Positions 731-13,644 of a stretch of DNA of 13,782 nucleotides are shown here, piece by piece. The position numbers were made by a program, and so were the translations under genes. The notes under the pieces are model-generated. The model searched no databases. It was given only the letters and a program-made list of their open reading frames with translations, and had not been told where the DNA came from. This DNA is from a virus. Position 1 is the stretch's first letter, and each line of letters starts with the position of its first letter. Location: UHGV virus genome UHGV-0081265. The stretch is one strand, 5' to 3'.

Positions 731-1834
731 TTATTTCAACTTTAACGCCAAATCTTCAGCTTTTGGATGATAATACCGCATTAGCATTCTTGGATCTTTA
801 TGTCCTGTAATTTTGGTTAGTTCATGCATAGGGAAAATTTCAGCAAGTCGAGAAGTTGCTTCATGTCGAAGGTCATGAAATCTTAAATCTTTAAGGAAAG
901 ATTCATCACATAATGAGTTTGTTTTCTCGTATCGTTCTCTGGCTCGTTTTACAGCTCGGTCAAAAGCTCGGGTAATCGCGTCTGCACGCATATCAAAAAC
1001 CTTATCAGCAGCTGGCTTAGAATGTTCCTTGAGACTGGACAGTATCGTAATGGCTTTCGTTGATAAAGGGACATCGCGGGCATTACCATTCTTAGTATCC
1101 GGCAGATGTGCAACTCGCCGATCAAGATCGATAAAGCGCCATCGAAGCTCTGCGATTTCGCTACGGCGCATGGCTGTCTCTAACGCCAGAAGAATGATTG
1201 CTGGCAATACTAATGAATGTGTTGCGGCGATGATATGTTCGATCTCGTTGGCTATTTGCTTTCCTGACGTAACACCGGTTTTCTCAGAAACTACAGGCAG
1301 CGCTTCCAGGCGTCTGGTCCTGGAGTTCTTGGGTTGGGGTTTGCGAATGGCCTCTACGGGGTTCAGCAGGCTCTCCATGCCCCATTCTTTCCGCGAAACA
1401 TTGAATACATGAGAAAGTAAGGCCAAACGCCTTAAAACGGTTGCAGGAGCATAGATTTTCAACCATTCATCTCTCAGCTTGGCGACATCGGCACTCCTGA
1501 TGCTGGCCATATAGTTTTTCGCCAGCTGAGTGCCTTTTAGTATCCGCACCAATGATCGGTCTTGCACTGCCCCTTTTTTGTCGGGAACAATCTCTTTTTC
1601 ATATCGCGTTAGGGCTTCATACAATGTCGTAGATTCCGCTTCGCTGCGGCTAAGCCAAACTCCTCTCGCCATTTCTGACTCGATCATTTTGGCCCAAGCT
1701 TCTGCTTCTACTTTGGTGTTAAAGGTTTTGGTTTGAGAGGGAAAACCACGTTTACGGATTTGAGCTTCCCATTGGTAGTTACCACGTTTGCGTATAGTCG
1801 CCATTTCTGTCTGATTCCTAACGAACTGTGGCAA
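731..1834 (-). CDS. int: tyrosine-type site-specific recombinase / phage integrase
   Basis: 367-aa ORF with the catalytic signature of tyrosine recombinases: Arg in ETAMRRSEIAELRW, His-x-x-Arg in FHDLRHEATSRL, Tyr in MLMRYYHPK. Its start lies ~58 bp from the tRNA-Thr fragment. Confidence 0.85.
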   Translation of the reverse strand: MPQFVRNQTEMATIRKRGNYQWEAQIRKRGFPSQTKTFNTKVEAEAWAKMIESEMARGVWLSRSEAESTTLYEALTRYEKEIVPDKKGAVQDRSLVRILKGTQLAKNYMASIRSADVAKLRDEWLKIYAPATVLRRLALLSHVFNVSRKEWGMESLLNPVEAIRKPQPKNSRTRRLEALPVVSEKTGVTSGKQIANEIEHIIAATHSLVLPAIILLALETAMRRSEIAELRWRFIDLDRRVAHLPDTKNGNARDVPLSTKAITILSSLKEHSKPAADKVFDMRADAITRAFDRAVKRARERYEKTNSLCDESFLKDLRFHDLRHEATSRLAEIFPMHELTKITGHKDPRMLMRYYHPKAEDLALKLK

Positions 1835-1892: not shown

Positions 1893-1941
1893 CGCATTCG
1901 TAATGCGAAGGTCGTAGGTTCGACTCCTATTATCGGCACCA
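1893..1941 (+). other. partial tRNA-Thr (thrW-like) 3' segment, 49 nt, ending in CCA; attachment-site remnant, not a complete tRNA gene
   Basis: CGCATTCGTAATGCGAAGGTCGTAGGTTCGACTCCTATTATCGGCACCA matches the anticodon-loop-to-CCA portion of E. coli tRNA-Thr(CGU) as I recall it. The upstream sequence does not continue into the D-arm or acceptor stem. Confidence 0.7.
1925..1941 (+). repeat. 17-bp att core direct repeat, left copy (TCCTATTATCGGCACCA)
   Basis: Identical 17-mer occurs again at 13351-13367. Together they bracket an ~11.4 kb gene set that begins with an integrase. Confidence 0.75.
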
Positions 1942-2053
1942 TCTCTTAGTATTTCCAAGTCATCTCAAATCAACAAAACCCTTTAAAAACATAGATATTA
2001 CGCGATTTTTCGTCATTTGACGTCAACCCCTATCTCTTGAAATCAACATACAA

Positions 2054-2106
2054 TTGGGGGCACAATCGGGGGCATGTTCTGTTCGGTCTAGGAAATGTGC
2101 CCCCAA
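2054..2106. promoter_or_regulatory. GGGGGCA repeat cluster with an 11-bp inverted repeat (TTGGGGGCACA / TGTGCCCCCAA) ending at the integrase start codon; candidate Int arm-type sites and/or start-sequestering hairpin
   Basis: Direct GGGGGCA copies at 2056-2062 and 2068-2074, inverted copy at 2096-2106 abutting the ATG at 2106. Similar GGGGGCAT motifs sit on the other side of the att core at 13269-13292. Confidence 0.4.
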
Positions 2107-3287
2107 TGATGCTGAATGCCCGCAAGGTTGAAGCCGCTAAAGGAAAAGAGAAGAGCTATAAGCTATCTGATGGAGGTGGCCTGTACCTTCAGGTTGAACC
2201 TAATGGCTCGCGTTACTGGCGTATGAAGTATCGTTTTGCTGGTAAAGAGAAGCGCTTGTCCTTTGGTGTCTATCCAACAGTCACCCTCGCAGATGCCAGA
2301 CAAAAACGCGAAGACGCAAAGAAACTACTCGCAGCAGGTGAAGATCCTGGCGAAGTGAAAAAAGCAAAGAAGCATGCTTTAAACGCAGCGACCGAGACAC
2401 TTAACCCATTCAGAGAAGTGGCGTTAGAGTGGCACAAAATGAAATCTCCCAAATGGTCTGAGGGCTATGCTTCAGACATCATTGAGGCGTTTGAGAAAGA
2501 CATTTTCCCGCATATTGGACACAGACCTATAGCCGATATTCAGCCCCTAGAACTACTTGAAGTACTGAGGTTGATAGAAGCACGAGGCGCTATGGAGAAA
2601 GCGAAGAAAGTCCGTCAGCGATGCGGTGAAGTTTTCCGCTATGCCATCGTAACGGGTAGAGCAATCTACAATCCTGCACCGGATCTTGCCAGTGCGATGC
2701 AAGGACATGAAGCAGTCCACTATCCATTCCTCAAAGCCAACGAGCTGCCGGAGTTCTTTACTGCCCTTAACGCTTATTCAGGAAGCCCAATTGTATTGCT
2801 GGGGGCACATTTACTTATCCTGACGGGTCTAAGAACAGGAGAGCTAAGAGCAGGTGAGTGGCGTGAGGTGGATTTTGATAATGCGGTGTGGGAGATTCCC
2901 AAAGAACGTATGAAAATGCGACGTGCTCATATTGTGCCGCTTTCAAATCAAGCATTAGTCCATCTTGAAACCTTAAAAGAACTGACTGGAAACTATCCTT
3001 TGATGTTTCCTGGGCGTAACGATCCAAGTAAGTGCATGAGTGAGGCCAGTATTAATCAGGTCTTTAAGCGTATTGGATATGCTGGCCGTGTTACTGGCCA
3101 TGGCTTCAGACACACAATGAGCACTATTTTGCATGAAAAAGGCTTCAATAGTGCATGGATTGAAACCCAGCTTGCACATTTGGATAAAAATGCTATTCGG
3201 GGGATATACAATCATGCTCAGTATCTTGAGGGGCGTCGGGAAATGATGCAATGGTACAGTGATTTTATTGGTGGAACGGAGTCTTGA
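2106..3287 (+). CDS. int: P4-family tyrosine integrase (start moved to the internal ATG at 2106; the ORF-track start at 2037 is a TTG)
   Basis: N-terminal arm-binding-type region (KLSDGGGLYLQVEPNGSRYWRMKYRFAGKEKRLSFGVYPTVTLADARQKRED) typical of P4-like integrases. Catalytic Arg (LTGLRTGELR), His-x-x-Arg (GHGFRHT) and Tyr (IRGIYNHAQY). Lies directly downstream of the tRNA 3' fragment in the same orientation. Confidence 0.9.
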   Translation: MMLNARKVEAAKGKEKSYKLSDGGGLYLQVEPNGSRYWRMKYRFAGKEKRLSFGVYPTVTLADARQKREDAKKLLAAGEDPGEVKKAKKHALNAATETLNPFREVALEWHKMKSPKWSEGYASDIIEAFEKDIFPHIGHRPIADIQPLELLEVLRLIEARGAMEKAKKVRQRCGEVFRYAIVTGRAIYNPAPDLASAMQGHEAVHYPFLKANELPEFFTALNAYSGSPIVLLGAHLLILTGLRTGELRAGEWREVDFDNAVWEIPKERMKMRRAHIVPLSNQALVHLETLKELTGNYPLMFPGRNDPSKCMSEASINQVFKRIGYAGRVTGHGFRHTMSTILHEKGFNSAWIETQLAHLDKNAIRGIYNHAQYLEGRREMMQWYSDFIGGTES

Positions 3288-3290
3288 GTA

Positions 3291-4079
3291 ATGGCAAATA
3301 ATACTCTCAAGCTTCATCGAACTCATTATAGCATTAGTGAGACCGCTAAAATATTGGGCTGCGATGAGCAAGATGTTATTTATATTGCGGATGAAAAAGA
3401 CATTCCATTGTCGCTAAGAATGTGTGGGCGATGGTCTTTTTCAAAGCATAAAGTAAGAGATGTGGACTCCTTTATTCAGAATATAAACTCTTTGAAAAAA
3501 GACAAAGATGGTTTCAGTTATATATCTGAGTTTAGTTTGATTAAGATTAATGAAGTTAAAAAAGATAAAAAACTAGTGCTGGCGAGTACAAAAGGCTATT
3601 TCCAAATGCCACCAAAGGTTAAAAGTGATTTCGTTTTTTATGAAGGGCAGTTCCCGGAGTACCCATCATTGTTATCTCCTGCTGGTACCACCTATTCTGA
3701 AATGGTCAAATATATTCAAATTGACTGGAAAAATGATGATGGGTTTGGATATGAGGGAGATGCGTACCTGGAGCGGGAAGATGTAAAGAAATTGCATCTA
3801 ATATTAAATGATGATGTTTCTAATGATAAATATAAATCGTTATCAATTGCACAGCAAGAAAGACATGCTACCAAGAGAAATGAGATTCTAAGTGTAGCAT
3901 TATATCTTTATAAAGAGGATATGGCATACCGAAAGGAAAATGCAGCAGCCCTTGCTGACCTTATCTTTAGTCGGGCTGAGGAATTTTGGCCTGATAAAAA
4001 AGAGCCTCCGCTATCACACCCAATTATTAGCAAACTAATATCATCTATATTCAAGAAACCATCATTTACAAAAAATTAA
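3291..4079 (+). CDS. hypothetical protein: N-terminal excisionase/AlpA-type HTH plus ~190-aa domain of unknown function; AT-rich
   Basis: ATG 4 bp after the int stop with RBS GGAACGGAG. Residues ~14-60 (ISETAKILGCDEQDVIYIADEKDIPLSLRMCGRWSFSKHKVRD) resemble the Xis/AlpA helix-turn-helix. Markedly lower GC than the flanking int gene. Followed by a strong terminator. Confidence 0.7.
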   Translation: MANNTLKLHRTHYSISETAKILGCDEQDVIYIADEKDIPLSLRMCGRWSFSKHKVRDVDSFIQNINSLKKDKDGFSYISEFSLIKINEVKKDKKLVLASTKGYFQMPPKVKSDFVFYEGQFPEYPSLLSPAGTTYSEMVKYIQIDWKNDDGFGYEGDAYLEREDVKKLHLILNDDVSNDKYKSLSIAQQERHATKRNEILSVALYLYKEDMAYRKENAAALADLIFSRAEEFWPDKKEPPLSHPIISKLISSIFKKPSFTKN

Positions 4080-4086
4080 CAATTTT

Positions 4087-4121
4087 GGCGAGTAAGGAGA
4101 TTTTTCTTACTCGCCTTTTTT
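4087..4121 (+). terminator. rho-independent terminator ending the int-orf262 transcription unit
   Basis: 10-bp perfect stem GGCGAGTAAG / CTTACTCGCC, 9-nt loop, followed by TTTTTT. Confidence 0.8.
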
Positions 4122-4186
4122 ATATTTTTGAACGATGTTTTAATCCTCTTCGTTGATATAGATTGATACATAGAGAGGAACTCATT

Positions 4187-4387
4187 ATGGGGTTTACTGA
4201 TAATCGTCCTTCTGCTGACTCGCTCATTGATATGAAATTCATTACATCTGATTGTCTTTTTACTGATAAATGGATTTATAAACTGATTTCTCTGGGACGT
4301 TTTCCTAAACCAATCAAGTTAGGTCGTATGTCCCGATGGCGTGCTGGTGACTACTATGCTTGGCGTGATAGTCATTCTTCAGAGTAA
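4187..4387 (+). CDS. alpA: AlpA/Vis-family phage transcriptional regulator / excisionase-like DNA-binding protein
   Basis: Sequence FITSDCLFTDKWIYKLISLGRFPKPIKLGRMSRWRAGDYYAW is the classic AlpA-family HTH motif. Start placed at ATG 4187, 6 nt after RBS AGAGAGGA; the ORF-track start at 4163 is a TTG. Confidence 0.8.
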   Translation: MGFTDNRPSADSLIDMKFITSDCLFTDKWIYKLISLGRFPKPIKLGRMSRWRAGDYYAWRDSHSSE

Positions 4388-4423: not shown

Positions 4424-5296
4424 ATGAATTACCGTCTACAACCAGCGGGGAGTCAATACATATCCCTTCCAATTAAGAATGAATATGTTTCCGTGTTAGG
4501 AAACTATAAAGTAAGTCCGTTTAAAGAAACTCATAGCGACACTGCATGTATTGTGCGAATTATTGAAATATTTTCATTGAATAAGCTGCGCGCTAAAGGT
4601 GAAAAGCTGTATTCACTTACGGGGTTAACAGTACCTGATACGGAAGCTGTGGCGAATGAGATCAACCTGCTCCTGAGCCGTTATGCCCAGTTGTGTCGTC
4701 AGGAAGAGGAAGAGTTATCTTTCCGGCAGCGTGAAGTGACAAATGCGGAAGTTGCATGGAAAAGCACATTCTCAAAAAACGGCGTCAGTAGCATTGCTGA
4801 AGCCAAAACGAATAAAACGGGGCATGCTGAACGAGCGGATGCTGAACGGTGTTACCATCTGGCTGTTTCTCGGCTGAATGAGCAACATAGCCGACTGAGC
4901 ACAATCAAGCTTTTACCGGGCGTACTGGTCGATGAAGTTAACTACATTGGTAAGGGAGTTGAGAAGCGTTTACTGAGCATATTTCCTCAATCCGGCCAGA
5001 TCCCTGCTGATTTTATTTCTGTGTTTAATGACAGTGACGTTGTTCGTGATATTAAATTTATTACAGATGCACTCAAATCTTTGTCTGATTCTGTGAATGA
5101 AATTATTAGCCGTTGTAGCGTTCCAACTGATCGTTATGTATTAAATAACGGTGGAATGGCAAGAGCTATGGCTTACAGGGAGTACTATCGAGCAGATAAT
5201 TATGTATTACGTTCAGTCGTTAGTGACCGGGATTATGTTGAGCATGTAATGAAATACAATCGGGTTACTGAGTACAAAAATAAAATCTTTTCTTAA
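4424..5296 (+). CDS. hypothetical protein, 290 aa; possible head-morphogenesis partner of the downstream capsid homolog
   Basis: Good RBS (GAGGAG) before ATG 4424. Sits immediately upstream of the GpN-like gene (23-bp gap). No family recognised by eye. The capsid-related role is inferred from position only. Confidence 0.6.
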   Translation: MNYRLQPAGSQYISLPIKNEYVSVLGNYKVSPFKETHSDTACIVRIIEIFSLNKLRAKGEKLYSLTGLTVPDTEAVANEINLLLSRYAQLCRQEEEELSFRQREVTNAEVAWKSTFSKNGVSSIAEAKTNKTGHAERADAERCYHLAVSRLNEQHSRLSTIKLLPGVLVDEVNYIGKGVEKRLLSIFPQSGQIPADFISVFNDSDVVRDIKFITDALKSLSDSVNEIISRCSVPTDRYVLNNGGMARAMAYREYYRADNYVLRSVVSDRDYVEHVMKYNRVTEYKNKIFS

Positions 5297-5318
5297 ATAC
5301 TAAAAAAGGTGAAAAACT

Positions 5319-6323
5319 ATGTATGCCTTCAAAACTGAAAGGCCGGACGCAGCACGTCGTTATCATAATAAATTCGTCACTGGTACTAACTATCAGGAGG
5401 AATCAAACAGACGCTTTGCATTAAGCGAACCCACTGAAAATATACTGCGTACCTCAATTCTGGAATCCGGGTGGCTTATTAAAAATATCACCCTACGTGA
5501 TGTTAACGCCGTGTCAGGTAATGCCGTCAATATTGGTGCCAGTGAACTGCATACCGGACGTGTGGATGGTGGCCGTTTCCACAAAAAAATGGCAATCAAT
5601 GGTACGGAGTTCTTTCTGACAGAGACGGATACCTGCGCCCGGATCAGCTATTCCGATATGTCTCATATTTACCATACCGGCGTGCCGGATGAGTTTGAGA
5701 AAACGGTTGAGAGCTTTTTTTCCCAGGCATATGCGCTGGACATGCTGCGGGTCGGTTTCAACGGTGTGTCGATTGCAAATACTACAAACCCGGAAATCAA
5801 TAAAAAAGGCGAGGATGTCAATATTGGCTGGCATGCACTGGCGAAAGCTTACGGGAACGGGAAGCAAATCATTTCTGAGCCTGTCACGCTGGGAGAGTCT
5901 GGCACCTGGAAAAACATTGATGCTCTGGCCAACCATCTGATTACTGAGCTTATTGCTGAGCAGTTTCGTGAAGATCCCCGTCTGGTTGTACTGGTTGGGG
6001 CAGAGCTGGCAGCACATCAACGCCTGAAGTTATTTAATGCCGCAGACCGCCCGGCTGATGTGAATGCGGCACAGATGGCGACAAGTTCTGTTGCTGGCCG
6101 CTTTGCGTTTATTCCCCCGTTTATGCCGGGTAAGCGTCTGGTAGTAACGACGCTGGATAATTTGCATATTTACACTCAGGCGATAACACGGTGGTTTCGT
6201 GCTGAGTTTGATGATGAAAACAGTGAATACGTACATTCCTACCTGCGTAATGAAGGCTATGCACTCGGTGAACCTGAACTGTACGCGGCTGTCGATGAGA
6301 GCGCCCTGACGTTTGCTGATTGA
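5319..6323 (+). CDS. P2 GpN-family major capsid protein homolog (HK97-fold capsid protein)
   Basis: 334 aa with RBS AAGGTGA. Several blocks align to P2 GpN as I recall it: ALDMLRVGFNGV vs SLDFIMAGFNGV; DALANHLITELIAEQFREDPRLVVLVGAELAA vs DALVMDATNNLIEPWYQEDPDLVVIVGRQLLA; TTLDNLHIYT vs TKLENLSIYY. Similar length to GpN (357 aa). Confidence 0.7.
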   Translation: MYAFKTERPDAARRYHNKFVTGTNYQEESNRRFALSEPTENILRTSILESGWLIKNITLRDVNAVSGNAVNIGASELHTGRVDGGRFHKKMAINGTEFFLTETDTCARISYSDMSHIYHTGVPDEFEKTVESFFSQAYALDMLRVGFNGVSIANTTNPEINKKGEDVNIGWHALAKAYGNGKQIISEPVTLGESGTWKNIDALANHLITELIAEQFREDPRLVVLVGAELAAHQRLKLFNAADRPADVNAAQMATSSVAGRFAFIPPFMPGKRLVVTTLDNLHIYTQAITRWFRAEFDDENSEYVHSYLRNEGYALGEPELYAAVDESALTFAD

Positions 6324-6363: not shown

Positions 6364-6520
6364 ACAGCATCAGGAAAAATGAAGAACTATTTTTAAGCAG
6401 AGGCTTAAGCATGCCAGCGTTAATTAATCCAGGCAATCATCAGTTTTCGGTTATAAATTTCTTGCCTCACAAGGAATACGCGGGATATAGTTCAAAGGTT
6501 GCCGCAAAATCGGCAGCCGG

Positions 6521-6786
6521 GCGTAGGAACCCGTGTAATCTAACGGCGACACAACACGCGCCAGGCGTGTTTTTTTGTGTCGTAGCTTTGACTCACCTTC
6601 GTTTTATGGTGTGGTGGCTGACTGCATGTTTTTATTTTTTACGCCACATCATCAGAATTATGGTAGTCCAGGCGGGGCAGCTTTCGGGCTGGCCGGTATC
6701 CGTTAGAGCCGGTATTCCTACCCCCGTCTGGGCTACCACCCATGAGCGTAGGAACTCCGGTGGTAGCGTTACCCGCTATCTAACGG
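6521..6786 (+). ncRNA. P4-type RNA immunity region: two direct repeats (seqA-like 6521-6546, seqC-like 6746-6786) flanking a complementary seqB-like element (6700-6721); candidate CI-RNA-like immunity RNA
   Basis: GCGTAGGAAC...ATCTAACGG occurs twice. Between them, CCGTTAGAGCCGGTATTCCTAC is the reverse complement of both sub-blocks (GTAGGAA and TCTAACGG). An internal terminator (6554-6576) and a 9-bp stem (GCTACCACC / GGTGGTAGC, 6731-6767) are present. Position upstream of the small-ORF/primase operon matches P4 organisation. Confidence 0.45.
6554..6576 (+). terminator. rho-independent terminator inside the immunity region
   Basis: Stem ACACGC / GCGTGT with 5-nt loop, followed by TTTTTT. Confidence 0.7.
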
Positions 6787-7234: not shown

Positions 7235-7637
7235 TAATCAAAATTTAAAGGCGCATGCTTTACGAACAGCAGTCTTACGGTACTACATTGCTGATTCATT
7301 CATTTCCTTAATGGAGCGTGTTCATAATGAACCTGTTTATATTGAAGATGGCGAACGAATAGAACTCACCCACGAAAAAGTGGTGAGTAATATTATTTAC
7401 CATATTGAAATGCCGTGGGTGAATGAGTTTGGGGCTGATGCAGGTTGCATACTGGCCGCAGAAAAACTGGAAAAAATGCTTAAACCGGGCTTTATGTCAG
7501 AAAATATTCGCCTGTCAGTTTTTGGTGTCACAGAGATGCGTGAGGTTTACCGGGATATTATTTTCGGTGCACCTGATGGCGAACTACCCGAAGGTTTTGA
7601 GTTTGTGAAGCCGGAAGGTCAGGAGGTGCTGCTGTGA
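7227..7637 (+). CDS. hypothetical protein (136 aa), translationally coupled to the primase
   Basis: Start overlaps the upstream stop. Its own stop TGA overlaps the GTG start of the primase gene. Confidence 0.6.
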   Translation: MNNNQNLKAHALRTAVLRYYIADSFISLMERVHNEPVYIEDGERIELTHEKVVSNIIYHIEMPWVNEFGADAGCILAAEKLEKMLKPGFMSENIRLSVFGVTEMREVYRDIIFGAPDGELPEGFEFVKPEGQEVLL

Positions 7638-10321
7638 AAACACCGTCTGTATCCACGATTTCCGGGGCTGCAATTGGGCGCTGGCCTTATATCCTGTCAG
7701 CATTAGGTATCAAAGTACCGTCCGCAGGACATCATGGGGCTTGCCCTGCCTGTGGTGGCAAAGATCGCTTTCGGCTGGACGATAAAGCGGGGCGTGGGAC
7801 GTGGTTTTGTAATCAGTGCGGTCATGGCGATGGTCTTGATCTGGTTCGTCTGGTGACAGGAAGAAAGATAAAAGAAGTCGCCGGGATGGTATCTGAGGCG
7901 CTTGCATTACCAGAAATACAGGAGAAGCCCGCTTTGCCTGCCAGGAAAAAGGCCGCAGGAAAAGAAGCGGGCGCGGAGCGATATACCAGACTCAGACAGC
8001 AGTCCTGCAATGGTGAACCGGTCTATCTGACAAACAAGGGCTTACATGGGTATTCACTTCCCTTGCTGTCACAGCCTTTGAATCTGGCCGGAATAACATT
8101 TTCCTCCGGTTCATTACTGCTGCCGTTGACGGATATTTCCGGGAATATTACTGGTGGCCAGCTTATCAATCCTGACGGGGATAAAAGTCTGCTGCCCGGT
8201 AGCCAGCTGTCTGGCGCATTCATTGCCCTGACCGATATACCCGCTGAAACACCTGAACAGGTGATTATAACAGAGGGTTTTGCCACGGCGCTTACCGTCA
8301 GTCTGCTGACTGAAGGATGGATCGTGGCGGCTGTTGCTGCCACCAATTTACTGAAGGTGACGGAGCAGATCCGGAAACGCTGGCCGGAAACCCGGATCAT
8401 TCTGGCTGGCGATAATGATCTGGCTGACGGGAAAGAAAACACCGGGCGTATTCAGGCAGAGAAAGCTGCCAAAGCAGTGGATGGCTGGGTAACGCTCCCT
8501 CCGGTACGCCATAAGGCTGACTGGGATGATTATCGGCAGGAAGTGGGGAAAGAACGGGCGAGAGATGCCTTTCGTGAAGAAATGACGCTGCATGGCAAAG
8601 GGCAGACCCGTTTACCAGAAGGGTTCCGGCTGACAAAAGAATATTTGTGGTACGACAAGCTGGTTAATAAGTCTGATGGTGATACGGAGATACGAAATAT
8701 CAAAATTTGCAGTCCGTTACGGGTGACGGCAATCACCAGTGATGCTGATGGAAGTAATTACGGGCGTTTGCTGGAATGGGAAGATACCAACGGAAACAGC
8801 CGTAAATGGGCAATGCCAATGGAGATGCTGGGTGGCAGCGGGGAAGAGCTGCGCCGCGTTCTGCTGGTTAACGGGCTTTCTTACATCAACATTAACGGTA
8901 TGGCCAGAGCATTCCTTATGGAATATATCTCGCTGTGTAAACCGGACAGAAAAGTAACCTGTGTAAATAAAACGGGCTGGCACGGCGGGGTTTACGTTCT
9001 CCAGGATGAAGTGATAGGACGTGAAGCCCAGTCAGTCATCTTACAAACGTCGAGTGTGCAGGGGCGTGATTTTCGTGTCAGCGGTACATCAGAGGACTGG
9101 CGTGAAAATATAAGCCGTTACTGCATAAATAATGCCCGTCTTGCCTTTGCGGTGAGTCTGGCATTTGCTGCCCCCCTTCTGAAACTGGTTGGTATCGGCG
9201 GTGGAGGTTATCACCTCAAAGGGGAATCAACGGATGGTAAAACCACGACGATGAAAGTGGCTGCTTCAGTATGTGGTGGAACAGATTTCTGGCATACGTG
9301 GCGGGCGACGGGGAATGCCTTAGAAGGAACGGCGAGCCGCCGTAATGATGCCACGCTGATGCTGGATGAAATCCGGGAGGTTGACGGCAGGGAGGCGGGG
9401 AATATCGCTTATATGCTGGCTAACGGGCAGGGCAAAGCCAGAGCCAGAACAGATGGTTCGGTAAGGGAAACCAACCGCTGGAATCTGTTGTTTCTGTCCA
9501 CCGGGGAACTGTCACTGGTAGAACATGCGGCAAGCGCCGGGGAACGTACGTATGCCGGGGTTGAGGTCAGAATGATCCAGATCCCAAGCGATTCGGGCAA
9601 ATATGGCGTGTTTGAAGAACTTCATGGCTTCAGTAGCGGGAAAACCCTGGCAGAGCATCTTGAGCAGCATGTAGCGCATTATCATGGCGCACCATTCCGC
9701 GACTGGCTGCATTGCCTGACCGCTGATCTGCCGGAACTGACCAGCCAGGCCAAAGCCTTATTGAAAGAGTACACCCGAAGGCTGACGCCGGAAAATGCCG
9801 GGAATCAGGTTGGCCGGGCTGTTACCCGTTTTGCTCTGGTTGCAATGGCCGGGGAACTGGCCACAAAAGCGGGCATCACAGGATGGCCGGAGGGAGAGGC
9901 CTTTCGTGCCGCCCAAAGTTGTCTGGCTGCATGGATGGCTGACCGGGGCCATACAGCTAATCAGGAAGATAAAGCGGCACTTGAACAGGTACGGGACTTC
10001 ATGACGCGTAATCAGTTCAGTCGGTTTGCTGACTGGAATGACGACAGGAACCGGCCTGTTTCAATGATGGGATTCAGAAAAGTCGATAAAGGAGACAACG
10101 TGACAGAGCCGGTTGTGACGTTCTACGTTCTCCCATCAGGCTGGAAGGAGATCTGTAAGGGATTTGATTCGCGTAAGGTGGCTAGGTTGTGTGTGGACGC
10201 GGGCTGGCTGAAACCCGGTGAAGATGGCCGGACGCAAAACAGCATTCGCCTGCCAGAAATAGGGCTTAAACGTGTGTACCAGTTCAATACGCAGGTACTG
10301 GGAAGCGCCGAACCGGAGTAA
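7634..10321 (+). CDS. P4 alpha-like bifunctional DNA primase-helicase
   Basis: 895 aa. N-terminal zinc ribbon (CPACGG...CNQCGH), TOPRIM motifs (IITEGFATALTVS; ILAGDND), P-loop helicase Walker A (GESTDGKTT) and Walker B (LMLDEIRE). GTG start 8 nt after AGGAGG. Confidence 0.9.
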   Translation: MKTPSVSTISGAAIGRWPYILSALGIKVPSAGHHGACPACGGKDRFRLDDKAGRGTWFCNQCGHGDGLDLVRLVTGRKIKEVAGMVSEALALPEIQEKPALPARKKAAGKEAGAERYTRLRQQSCNGEPVYLTNKGLHGYSLPLLSQPLNLAGITFSSGSLLLPLTDISGNITGGQLINPDGDKSLLPGSQLSGAFIALTDIPAETPEQVIITEGFATALTVSLLTEGWIVAAVAATNLLKVTEQIRKRWPETRIILAGDNDLADGKENTGRIQAEKAAKAVDGWVTLPPVRHKADWDDYRQEVGKERARDAFREEMTLHGKGQTRLPEGFRLTKEYLWYDKLVNKSDGDTEIRNIKICSPLRVTAITSDADGSNYGRLLEWEDTNGNSRKWAMPMEMLGGSGEELRRVLLVNGLSYININGMARAFLMEYISLCKPDRKVTCVNKTGWHGGVYVLQDEVIGREAQSVILQTSSVQGRDFRVSGTSEDWRENISRYCINNARLAFAVSLAFAAPLLKLVGIGGGGYHLKGESTDGKTTTMKVAASVCGGTDFWHTWRATGNALEGTASRRNDATLMLDEIREVDGREAGNIAYMLANGQGKARARTDGSVRETNRWNLLFLSTGELSLVEHAASAGERTYAGVEVRMIQIPSDSGKYGVFEELHGFSSGKTLAEHLEQHVAHYHGAPFRDWLHCLTADLPELTSQAKALLKEYTRRLTPENAGNQVGRAVTRFALVAMAGELATKAGITGWPEGEAFRAAQSCLAAWMADRGHTANQEDKAALEQVRDFMTRNQFSRFADWNDDRNRPVSMMGFRKVDKGDNVTEPVVTFYVLPSGWKEICKGFDSRKVARLCVDAGWLKPGEDGRTQNSIRLPEIGLKRVYQFNTQVLGSAEPE

Positions 10322-10603: not shown

Positions 10604-10876
10604 ATGAAGATGATGAGAATGTACTGCCCCACATGTCAGGCAGTAGCGCGGATAGGTAAAACAAACAGGAAACACCCACAACTGTACGATGTGTACTGCT
10701 ATTGCTCTAATGTGGAGTGCGGTCACTCGTTTGTGATGAATGTTGCTTTCTCCCATTCCGTTAGTCCAAGCGCGCTGAACGGGCAGGGGAGGGTTAAAGA
10801 GCTAATTGATGCCATTCCACCCGAGGAGCGGGAAAAGGCTTTAAAGTTGCTGCTGGCTGCGCAAAAGAATGGGTAA
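10604..10876 (+). CDS. Ogr/Delta-family zinc-finger late-gene transcriptional activator
   Basis: Cys spacing C-x2-C-x22-C-x4-C (YCPTCQ...CYCSNVEC) is the Ogr/Delta signature. Size (85-90 aa) is Ogr-like. The true start may be the internal ATG at 10619. Confidence 0.8.
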   Translation: MKMMRMYCPTCQAVARIGKTNRKHPQLYDVYCYCSNVECGHSFVMNVAFSHSVSPSALNGQGRVKELIDAIPPEEREKALKLLLAAQKNG

Positions 10877-11482
10877 AGTATGCGTCGGGAATGGCCGATC
10901 CGTTCCCGGAACCTGACCACAGGATTTCAGTTTATACGAACATAAAATTATTATTTTTCAATTTGTTATGTTTTTCGTATTTCACGAACCTTCATAAAAT
11001 CACACACCTAAAATAAATTATCCATTTAATATCATAGTGTTGCGTATTCAGGCCACAAATGCGACGGACAGTAAAACTGAAAAAAGCTGAATTTCTTTTC
11101 ATTCTTTTCAGTTCCTGCCTCGCAGTGCATCCCCAGCACGGACGCGGGCTGGCGGTATCGTTTGTAAAAAATCACAACTGAAAAATTTTAGTGATATGAA
11201 AACCGCAGGCGGGTGCGGTGTAGTGCGATTTTGGTCTTATAAAGATTTGTGTCTTAAAATTAATTAATGGTTTTAACTATTTGTTTGGAATTAATTTCAC
11301 AATGTACATGTTTGATATGAATGATAAATTAGTATATGCTTGAGTAAAGAAATGATGTATATTTTTATGGTCGAGGTGTAAGCGCTTTTTTGATGTATTT
11401 AATAGGTGTATGTTTTTATTAATCGGAGAATTGTTAATATTTATAATTGTTATAAAATAGAAATCGCTATGAAGGTGTGTAT

Positions 11483-12085
11483 ATGAGAGATAATTCAAAT
11501 AAAGTAAAGGGGTATGTAAGACGTAAAGTTGATTTGTATATTTTGTCATTAGCTATTTTATTTTGTTTTTTTATTTTTATTACAATAAAATTTCCTGTGT
11601 GTTTTGGGGCTAAATGTGAGTTCATTGGCTGGTCTTTGCTGTTGAAAAATAATATTGTTCCCTTGATTTGCGTAGGGTTGCTTTTATATTGTGGGGTGGC
11701 CTACAAAAGGTTTCAATATGACACAAATAAAAGTGTCGAACTTCCAATGAAAATAACAAAAATTGAAAAAATAAATTATGAGCACCTTACCTTTTTAGCC
11801 ACATATATTATCCCATTGATTACATTTGATTTTGAAAAAGAAAGGTATGTGATCGTTCTAGCAGTTCTCTTGATAATTATGGGTATTATTTATATTAAAA
11901 CGGATTTGTTTTACGCTAATCCATCCTTGGCTTTATTAGGGTTTAATATTTATAAGTTGGATGTGAGTATAACAGGAGGTATTAATAAAACAGGGCTAAT
12001 ATTAATTACTAGGCGACAGTTAAAAGAAAATGACATGATAAGTTATATTGTGCTTGATGAAAGAGTTTACTATTCTGGAGATTAA
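11483..12085 (+). CDS. small 4-TM membrane protein (200 aa); first gene of an AT-rich two-gene cargo; KwaA-like architecture, unverified
   Basis: ATG 11483 after RBS GAAGG. Four hydrophobic helices (LYILSLAILFCFFIFITI, IVPLICVGLLLYCGVAY, LTFLATYIIPLITF, YVIVLAVLLIIMGIIYI) then a ~60-aa soluble tail. Very AT-rich. A 10-bp gap separates it from the next gene. Confidence 0.65.
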   Translation: MRDNSNKVKGYVRRKVDLYILSLAILFCFFIFITIKFPVCFGAKCEFIGWSLLLKNNIVPLICVGLLLYCGVAYKRFQYDTNKSVELPMKITKIEKINYEHLTFLATYIIPLITFDFEKERYVIVLAVLLIIMGIIYIKTDLFYANPSLALLGFNIYKLDVSITGGINKTGLILITRRQLKENDMISYIVLDERVYYSGD

Positions 12086-12094
12086 GGATTAAAT

Positions 12095-13078
12095 ATGTCA
12101 CCGCAGCAATTGGATAAAAAAGGCTTGGATGATAATCTAAGTTATTATATTAATAATAAAGATGATATTTCTGTTATTGTTTATGCCATTCTAAAAAATA
12201 GCCCTGTTGCATATCGAATGGATATAGAGGGAAGCGCTCAAGATGGCCTCAAAGAATTATTTTTAGAAAGTATAAAAAATAATATCATTGATAATGATGA
12301 TATCAGTATTTTACCTCTTTCGTCAGCAGATGAAAGAAATAATGTTATTTATCATTACGATATTGAATGGCCTGATGAGTTAACCTCCATGCAAAGTATG
12401 CTTGGGCAGCAAGGGGAGAGTGTTTTTGATTTTAATGTACAAAATATTGAAGATATTAGAGTGTTGCTAATTTGTATTGGTAATGTACAACAACAAATTA
12501 TACTCTACAAAACAATGGCTCCAGTCAATATTTTCTCTCGCTCAGGTTTTTTTCTAAAAAAATCAGCAACAAGACTTGAGGAAATTGAAGATGATTTTTT
12601 TCGAGTTAGTGATAATTTTCAAATTATCAAAGTTGAAAATGATTTATATGTGGTAGATCTTAAGTTAATCGAGAAAATGTTTGGTTTTCACGAGGTTATC
12701 AAAAAAGAGGCTACACTTGGCATGAATGCCATTGAGAGTATGAATATTATCACTGATATAAATGTGATAAAAGAACTAATAGATGATGTAAAATATGCTA
12801 GAAAACTAACAAGGATAGCAAAATCTTCTCCAGTAATATTAGCTAATATTGAAAATGAAAAAATTATAGAGTTTTGTAAAACCTACCCAGTGTTGGTCAA
12901 TAGAATCAGATTTAATGAAGATGGAACAAAGATCGCACTTGACACGAAGGTTTCAAAAGATCTATTTATTAAAATTCTGATGGATGATTTTTTAACCTCA
13001 CAGTTGACTCAATTTTATTATGAGAGTCTAGCAAAAGATGCAGTAAAAATAGCCGCTGATAATACTAAAGAAAACTAA
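12095..13078 (+). CDS. 327-aa soluble protein, second gene of the two-gene cargo; size and context fit KwaB (DUF4868) of Kiwa, but domain not confirmed
   Basis: RBS AAGGA before ATG 12095. Acidic, AT-rich, no TM segment, no obvious nuclease or NTPase motif by eye. Followed by a terminator hairpin. Lies in the variable position next to attR. Confidence 0.65.
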   Translation: MSPQQLDKKGLDDNLSYYINNKDDISVIVYAILKNSPVAYRMDIEGSAQDGLKELFLESIKNNIIDNDDISILPLSSADERNNVIYHYDIEWPDELTSMQSMLGQQGESVFDFNVQNIEDIRVLLICIGNVQQQIILYKTMAPVNIFSRSGFFLKKSATRLEEIEDDFFRVSDNFQIIKVENDLYVVDLKLIEKMFGFHEVIKKEATLGMNAIESMNIITDINVIKELIDDVKYARKLTRIAKSSPVILANIENEKIIEFCKTYPVLVNRIRFNEDGTKIALDTKVSKDLFIKILMDDFLTSQLTQFYYESLAKDAVKIAADNTKEN

Positions 13079-13268: not shown

Positions 13269-13292
13269 GGGGGGGGGCATTTTAGGGGGCAT
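13269..13292 (+). promoter_or_regulatory. G-run / GGGGGCAT repeats adjacent to the right att core; candidate integrase arm-type sites
   Basis: GGGGGGGGGCAT (13269-13280) and GGGGGCAT (13285-13292), same motif as the copies next to the left att core at 2056-2075. Confidence 0.35.
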
Positions 13293-13350: not shown

Positions 13351-13367
13351 TCCTATTATCGGCACCA
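13351..13367 (+). repeat. 17-bp att core direct repeat, right copy (TCCTATTATCGGCACCA)
   Basis: Exact copy of 1925-1941 (the tRNA-Thr 3' end). Upstream sequence no longer matches the tRNA, so this is the element-distal junction. Confidence 0.75.
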
Positions 13368-13644
13368 TTAAAATCAAATTGTTACGTAAGATCTTATCAT
13401 TCTCCCACCAAAAAATTATCTTAATGTAACAGCTGGTGTAAGTAAATTCTATCAACGAAGATCAATCTTATCTACTGACCAAAAAGGCCTGATAGGGCTT
13501 CGCTCACTATACATCCTTGGCTGCAGGTTTAGTTGTACACCACTCCTAAATTTAATGTGTTGGCAATGTGTTCAATAAAGCTCGAACAAATTAGCTCATT
13601 ATGATCGGTTAATACTTCAACTTCTGGTTGCATGATTGTTTGTC

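Follow-up and report, generated by a model that had tools for sequence, protein, structure and literature searches.

SaPI Stl, a protein of about 260 aa that is encoded beside int, has three parts: an HTH-type domain at the N-terminus, a middle that is divergent, and a C-terminal part that is conserved. Its divergence from element to element is strong, as would be expected of a helper-specific sensor. In the Gram-negative PICIs (GN-PICIs), an "integration zone" has been described that holds Int, HTH_17 proteins and AlpA (PMC10111431); the HTH_17 proteins are mentioned there generically. AlpA is the helper-induced master regulator, and its mode of induction is unknown (PMC10111431, PMC11773190). 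The P4 CI-type RNA immunity has been assigned to a "Bro zone" (PMC10111431), a minor "primase-to-att" hotspot has been described (PMC13586616), and gop-beta-cII was found to protect against lambda and P1 (PMC9122126).

The present analysis concerns a gene, here called X, that lies between int and alpA in a stretch of 13,782 nucleotides from UHGV virus genome UHGV-0081265 (the whole stretch is termed "the window"). In satellites and mobilizable islands that use P4-type integrases, X is a constant third member of the integration zone (in the order Int, X, terminator, AlpA), and it is linked to int and alpA across deep divergence and differing replication modules. It is under purifying selection, evolves fast and is swapped as a cassette, with constant ends and a variable middle.

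The satellite and its gene order

The window contains an integrated element of ca. 11.4 kb that is delimited by an 18-nt direct repeat; all of its genes lie on the plus strand. The element is a P4-like satellite, or Gram-negative PICI, without psu and sid. It matches the thrW-integrated element of E. coli AH04, with identity from position 1896 onward, and the RefSeq annotation of that strain agrees with an int start at 2106. An identical att core (TCCTATTATC) is given for thrW satellites in PMC11773190. The following features were assigned:

1925-1942, plus strand: attL core, TCCTATTATCGGCACCAT, the 3'-terminal part of a truncated tRNA-Thr(CGT) (1893-1941)
2106-3287, plus strand: P4-type tyrosine integrase (int), with Arm-DNA-bind_3, Phage_int_M and Phage_integrase domains (Pfam E 6e-28 to 4e-35)
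3291-4079, plus strand: gene X, the ORF after int, 262 aa
4087-4121, plus strand: intrinsic terminator that closes the int-X unit (stem 4087-4115, T-run 4116-4121; 12-13 pairs, -19.6 kcal/mol)
4136-4179, plus strand: alpA control region (extended -10 and inverted repeat)
4187-4387, plus strand: AlpA-family regulator/excisionase (Pfam Phage_AlpA, E 5e-4; phrog_66 and phrog_2790)
Within 4424-6323, before the capsid gene, plus strand: 290-aa ORF, which might encode a scaffold
5319-6323, plus strand: P2-family major capsid protein (Pfam E 5e-67)
Between the capsid and primase genes, plus strand: Ash/Icd-like protein, followed by two small ORFs
7634-10321, plus strand: Zn-ribbon/Toprim/DUF927 primase-helicase
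10604-10876, plus strand: Ogr/Delta zinc-finger protein
11477-13078, plus strand: KwaA and KwaB, the Kiwa defense system (NCBIfam equivalogs, 1.9e-67 and 4e-106)
13351-13368, plus strand: attR core, identical to the repeat at 1925-1942, which sets the element size

Three RNA elements were located inside the Ash/Icd-like gene with Rfam: the c4-a1b1 target (6485-6537), isrK (6498-6575) and a C4 antisense RNA (6656-6743, 81 bits). The set is a P4 CI-type RNA immunity, carried by a satellite without psu and sid. With C4 RNA immunity present, a protein master repressor would not be required for the early operon.

The slot after ogr/delta varies in its defense content: it holds Kiwa in the window, DRT3 in strain C21, and DprA with a phosphoribosyltransferase in PSJ-36. 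It matches the "primase-to-att" hotspot of PMC13586616. The Kiwa block between ogr/delta and attR has a GC content of 25-31%, and the Kiwa proteins found there in E. coli NCTC9100 are just 54-62% identical. The pair formed by an own P2-family capsid gene and the preceding 290-aa ORF recurs in relatives from Serratia, Salmonella, Brenneria, Enterobacter and Phytobacter.

The left flank (1-1941) belongs to another element, the ICE-like end of which carries a tyrosine recombinase (731-1834, minus strand), a 229-aa ORF (32-721) and an IS1 remnant. Adjoining this end is a tRNA-like hybrid sequence, where the tRNA-Thr match is limited to the 3' 49 nt (1893-1941); no complete tRNA was found by ARAGORN. 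At the same hybrid site in E. coli FAM21845, RefSeq gives a 112-nt "tRNA-Ser", where ARAGORN finds none. The ICE-like flank and the hybrid junction indicate that thrW is occupied by a tandem array. GGGGGCA repeats were observed upstream of the int start (2056-2062 and 2068-2074, and inverted at 2098-2104) and beside attR (13273-13279 and 13285-13291). These are candidate arm-type sites of the integrase, and the left set overlaps the int promoter/start region.

Position, expression and control signals of X

The ORF of X is the only long frame in 3291-4079 on the plus strand, and 3 nt separate its ATG (3291) from the TGA of int (3285-3287). The first-pass annotation of this DNA had described an ORF just after int, with a GC content well below that of int and a strong terminator at its end. 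Each of these statements was borne out: the GC content is 0.35 for X and 0.47 for int (GC3, 0.30 and 0.42), and the terminator is the hairpin of 12-13 bp listed above. The low GC content is not confined to the copy in the window. In every locus read, the X homolog lies 6-15 GC points under its own int (10-15 points in all but one), and the offset persists in hosts of higher GC content (0.45 for X vs. 0.57 for int, and 0.39 vs. 0.54). Because the offset was found in every locus, the AT-richness of X is a property of the family and not a mark of recent insertion.

A hairpin was likewise found 3' of the X homolog in every locus read. The stem sequences vary by locus (GGCGAGTAAG.., GTGACTAATGA.., AATGGCTGTAA..) yet still pair, which indicates compensatory change. 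From the region of the int start to X, the plus strand yielded no sigma-70-like promoter. In the close clades, the gap between int and X measures -41 to +7 nt (up to 93-96 nt in distant loci). The lack of an internal promoter and the tight gap show that X is produced with Int: X is made from the int transcript and is translationally coupled to int in the clade of the window, and the terminator separates it from alpA. That regulator gene had been placed two genes downstream by the first-pass annotation; it is in fact the very next one.

The alpA control region opens with an extended -10 element (TG-n-TTTAAT, 4136-4144; conserved across loci in the form TG-n-T[T/G/C]TAAT). An inverted repeat follows, the 5' arm of which is TCCTCTT (4144-4150) and the 3' arm GAGAGGA (4173-4179), the latter being the alpA Shine-Dalgarno sequence. 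A stem search was performed locus by locus, with shuffles. The arms vary between clades and stay complementary (TCCTCTC/GAGAGGA, ATTTTCCGT/ACGGAGAAT, TCACTCCA/TGGAGTGA, TATCCCCC/GGGGGATG and others), and the loop measures 17-24 nt across loci. RNAalifold, applied to a MAFFT alignment of the leader, returned a weak consensus owing to misalignment. The repeat looks like an anti-SD element that would, with the terminator, keep int-X read-through from expressing alpA; alternatively, it is possibly a protein operator. A repeat search for an operator-like motif shared around int, X and alpA returned none that was convincing.

In the window, X lies between an Arm-DNA-bind_3 integrase and AlpA, on the same strand as both, in an att-bounded element with a DUF927 primase. 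The order Int, X, AlpA on one strand was found in all 14 related loci from genome collections (from E. coli, Shigella, Citrobacter, Enterobacter, Siccibacter, Phytobacter, Pantoea and Brenneria), and the full order with the hairpin in all contexts read but one. Short contigs identified with tblastn also support it, and AlpA is encoded 3' of X in every case in which the next gene can be seen. The order is unchanged for distant members of the family (17-31% identity) in elements with other replication genes: one with D5_N/Pox_D5 and Bro-N, one with AAA_25 and a MobA/MobL relaxase, another with DUF927, and another that bears a capsid gene. Elements that carry X span four different replication modules. 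The sole exception is a JGI metagenome contig (L024, 136-4325) in which a GmrSD-family gene and a 210-aa ORF precede X, and AlpA and then a DUF3987 protein follow; no int lies directly upstream, where the contig ends. This may be a defense insertion between int and X.

Among 5426 complete E. coli genomes, the int type of the window was found in 83 and an X homolog in 79 (13 + 66). A comparison of the slot downstream of int had been suggested, with the expectation that it might be a variable site in which X was a single-gene cargo. The comparison refuted this: a homolog occupies the same position in all related elements examined, and the variable slot is the one after ogr/delta. At very deep distances, unrelated genes are found downstream of int, namely P4 cII, CP4-57 yfjH (on the opposite strand) and EcCIMP1_002. 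P4, CP4-57 and EcCIMP1 are elements with a P4-type Int and AlpA that work without X, which makes X an add-on and not a core factor. The position of X is conserved in related elements; the family has no known housekeeping role. YfjH of K-12 CP4-57 and EcCIMP1_002 were both considered as X homologs on account of the shared slot and were rejected; the paper on the latter gives a much smaller protein.

Family, evolution and predicted fold of X

Word-indexed searches yielded 14 and 18 relatives of X, all of which are annotated as "hypothetical" and are without Pfam domains. When 1.84 billion cluster representatives (clusters at 50% identity) were searched with a profile, homologs were found in 130 clusters at E ≤ 1e-3, mostly of 250-373 aa. 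The hosts are Gamma- and Betaproteobacteria, and among the sources with a name are Salmonella, Serratia, Cronobacter, Pantoea, Erwinia, Pseudaeromonas and a Gallionella MAG. No paper was found that describes the family or cites accessions of its members. Nine of 50 relatives match phrog_7144, which has no annotation (best E 8e-10), so part of the family had already been clustered earlier; X of the window does not itself reach the threshold of that PHROG. It had no match in NCBIfam, and none in phage and plasmid collections by tblastn. Weak matches in PADLOC-DB 2.0 to the mad1 HTH (E 0.008) and PDC-M03A (E 0.01) recur in 0 of 50 relatives, and a weak match to phrog_1726 ("anti-repressor") does not recur in relatives either; these identities were rejected.

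The broad family alignment is without any conserved stretch of 7-10 residues. Between clades, identity is 36-45% in the C-terminal domain, 28-37% in the N-terminal domain and 17-25% in the center, which in distant members is unalignable and varies in length by more than 100 residues. Family motifs are found at the N-terminus (L-P-L-x-x-Y-x-x-x-x-A-A-x-L-L-x-C-x-x-x-D-L-L-H) and the C-terminus (E-R-H-A-x-x-R-E-x-V-L-x-A-A-I ... F-W-P-x-x-G-x-P-P-L-S). The dN/dS values are 0.08-0.19 for X vs. 0.03-0.07 for int and primase, and for most pairs of elements the ratio of the X dN to the int dN is ca. 2-10. Because of these dN/dS values and of motifs common to homologs down to ca. 20% identity, X is regarded as a real, functional gene. 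Two anomalous copies were encountered. In Citrobacter youngae CCUG 30791 (L005, 6001-6787), X matches in two frames, with the break after residue 203, suggestive of a frameshift, and the relative P0003 has a scrambled central region; either occasional pseudogenization or assembly errors would explain these.

The element of E. coli NCTC9100 is 98-100% identical to the window at the nucleotide level outside of a mosaic block (2880-4080). Within this block, the last third of int is ca. 80% identical and X ca. 60%, and the right breakpoint lies at the terminator. The X protein of NCTC9100 is 58% identical to that of the window and closest to an Enterobacter allele. From this sharply bounded block, comprising the 3' third of int and X, it follows that X alleles are swapped as a cassette. 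The integrases associated with X fall into at least two clades that are ca. 25% identical. Monophyly of these integrases was sought and not found: P4 Int, which is without X, nests among them. It follows that the linkage is an old one that has suffered losses, or else that X is transferred from one integration module to another.

An AlphaFold2 model of X was built on 25 homologs (pLDDT 81, pTM 0.62). The following domains were delimited:

Residues 12-54 (3324-3452, plus strand): N-terminal domain, MerR/excisionase-like winged helix, with an acidic helix 2 (D25, E26, D28)
Residues 58-175 (3462-3815, plus strand): central alpha/beta domain, acidic and least conserved
Residues 176-262 (3816-4076, plus strand): C-terminal helical domain, basic (pI 9.4) and most conserved

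An excisionase/AlpA-type HTH had been proposed for the N-terminal part, which held for the fold and failed for the profile. In the model, residues 12-54 form a helix-turn-helix and a beta-hairpin wing, as in the MerR-like winged-helix fold. Against Pfam, the similarity to HTH_17 was below threshold (E 0.046; 14.4 bits, under the gathering cut-off of 27), there was no match to Phage_AlpA, and 0 of 50 relatives reached either profile at E ≤ 0.01. X was accordingly ruled out, by profile, as a member of Phage_AlpA or HTH_17.

Beyond the HTH, the alpha/beta part (58-175) and a helical part (178-254) are predicted with confidence to be folded, in line with the earlier description of a large, unrecognized C-terminal region and at odds with the possibility that no folded C-terminal domain would be found. 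No significant match to the ca. 200 residues after the winged helix was obtained in Pfam, the PDB or BFVD, and the C-terminal domain alone had no Pfam match; the two non-HTH domains may be new folds. At 262 aa, with two further predicted domains, X exceeds the ca. 60-100 aa of a single-domain excisionase. It is thus, as the first-pass annotation had maintained, not simply an excisionase; rather, an excisionase-like winged helix is fused to a large folded region. No recognizable effector domain (nuclease, NTPase, TIR, SIR2 or membrane segment) was found in X.

The distribution of charge was examined in 74 members. The median pI is 5.0 for the first 60 residues, the median net charge of the center is -8, and only the last 85 residues form a basic part (median pI 9.1); the wing is basic in the clade of the window only. 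Helix 2 of X is DEQDVIYIADEKD, and D28 in it is near-invariant, being kept in at least 90% of members. The HTH_17 consensus presumably has a DNA-contacting Thr at the position that matches Asp28. Ordinary operator binding by the N-terminal domain is therefore doubtful. We infer that nucleic acids are more likely to be bound by the C-terminal domain and that the N-terminal domain is a protein-contact module.

Possible functions of X and comparison with known systems

X is best explained, tentatively and with somewhat less than even confidence, as a regulatory adaptor that acts in the Int/AlpA excision-induction switch and whose variable center would give partner specificity. This reading draws on the constant synteny with int and alpA across replication modules, the matching prevalence of X and its int type in E. 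coli, the coupling to int, the purifying selection, the cassette swap, the charge pattern of the three domains, the family-wide low GC content and the published role of AlpA in the integration zone. In a quiescent element, X would be produced together with Int. Its conserved ends would engage constant partners (DNA or RNA through the basic C-terminal domain, Int or AlpA through the acidic winged helix), and its center would provide specificity for a partner or signal, e.g. a helper-phage product. X would thereby set the timing of AlpA-driven excision and of late expression. Several observations weigh against an adaptor: many elements with a P4-type Int and AlpA do without X (P4, CP4-57 and EcCIMP1), the acidic helix 2 speaks against ordinary operator binding by the HTH, the C4/isrK RNA immunity already covers the early operon, and GmrSD, not int, precedes X in L024. 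In addition, the synteny with int and alpA could mean that X hitch-hikes in a module of tight linkage and shares no function with them.

It is possible, if somewhat unlikely, that X is an exclusion or anti-phage protein of the lysogen that is expressed constitutively from the int promoter and senses a phage component with its center. Such a protein might well be AT-rich and fast-evolving, with alleles that swap horizontally and a center that is hypervariable between conserved ends. Expression with int and insulation by the terminator would suit it as well; moreover, P4 cII, the positional analog of X, belongs to the validated gop-beta-cII anti-phage system, and one distant copy of X adjoins GmrSD (L024). 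However, the PADLOC matches are at noise level (best E 5e-4), are confined to isolated single members and include none that is common to members, and a recognizable effector domain is missing from X. Defense cargo is also rarely fixed at one syntenic site across Gamma- and Betaproteobacteria and across element types, and the real variable defense slot (Kiwa, DRT3 or DprA with the phosphoribosyltransferase) is at the other end of the element.

That X is a recombination accessory of the integrase, i.e. a directionality or architectural protein at att, is considered improbable. The translational coupling or overlap of X with int would be expected of such a cofactor, as would an N-terminal fold shared with excisionases and MerR-type DNA binders, a basic and conserved C-terminal domain, and a swapped block made up of X and the catalytic third of int. 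These points are countered by the two or more clades of X-associated integrases (ca. 25% identical, with the X-less P4 Int among them), by related Int/AlpA elements that recombine without X, and by gaps between int and X of up to 93-96 nt in distant loci. A hypervariable acidic center of 100-200 aa would be unexpected for an att-binding protein, and helix 2 of the HTH is acidic.

A repressor or sensor that links helper infection to induction had been proposed in the first-pass annotation, and this proposal has been weakened. The sensor part fits the hypervariable center and the swapping of alleles. A classical repressor is disfavored by the acidic helix 2 with its near-invariant Asp, by the median pI of 5.0 of the N-terminal domain, and by the P4-type C4/CI RNA immunity that the element already has. 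It is quite unlikely that X is the helper-sensing switch of Gram-negative satellites, a functional analog of Stl on a different fold. By analogy, the conserved ends of X would restrain AlpA, Int or the alpA control region, and the hypervariable acidic center would serve as a decoy or receptor; the binding of a helper-phage protein to it would free alpA and trigger excision. If this were true, allele swapping would re-target the satellite to a new helper, and the switch would be important, given the unexplained induction of alpA by helpers (PMC11773190, PMC10111431).

Recent acquisition of X as AT-rich cargo in a variable int-proximal slot, which its lower GC content compared to int and the unrelated genes in the slot at very deep distances (P4 cII, CP4-57 yfjH and EcCIMP1_002) might have suggested, is highly improbable given the constant position in all related loci, the 79 X-carrying vs. 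83 int-type E. coli genomes, the GC offset found in every homolog, and the purifying selection.

For annotators, the X family can serve as a third marker for the integration zone. Returning to the adaptor and to the exclusion protein, the variable, specificity-type domain of X makes the family an evident candidate for a layer of alpA control or for a new exclusion function. The X genes of NCTC9100 and the window constitute a natural allele swap on a near-identical backbone and could be used as specificity controls.

Among known systems, SaPI Stl resembles X in length, in its three-part layout and in its location beside int, a likeness that is one of analogy: a comparison with the solved Stl structures revealed no sequence or fold relationship. 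An Stl-like repressor is also transcribed divergently from the operon that it represses, with operators in the intergenic region that both share, whereas X is co-directional with alpA, with a terminator between the two. P4 cII (sce7726 family) has the same layout as X, in which int is followed by a gene of ca. 264 aa and a rho-independent terminator. X was rejected as a homolog of cII: the hhalign probability was 0.5%, and cII hits sce7726_fam (2.5e-44, 151 bits), whereas X hits nothing. With the excisionase-regulators of the AlpA/Vis/TorI type, X shares the winged-helix fold and the G-R-W-x-F wing motif of its N-terminal domain, and it occupies the same genomic zone beside a P4-type integrase. 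It differs from them in being four times larger, with two extra domains of unknown fold, in falling below Pfam thresholds, and in coexisting with a canonical AlpA to which it has no detectable sequence similarity. The X family is a hitherto unnamed family of integration-zone accessory proteins with an excisionase-like domain.
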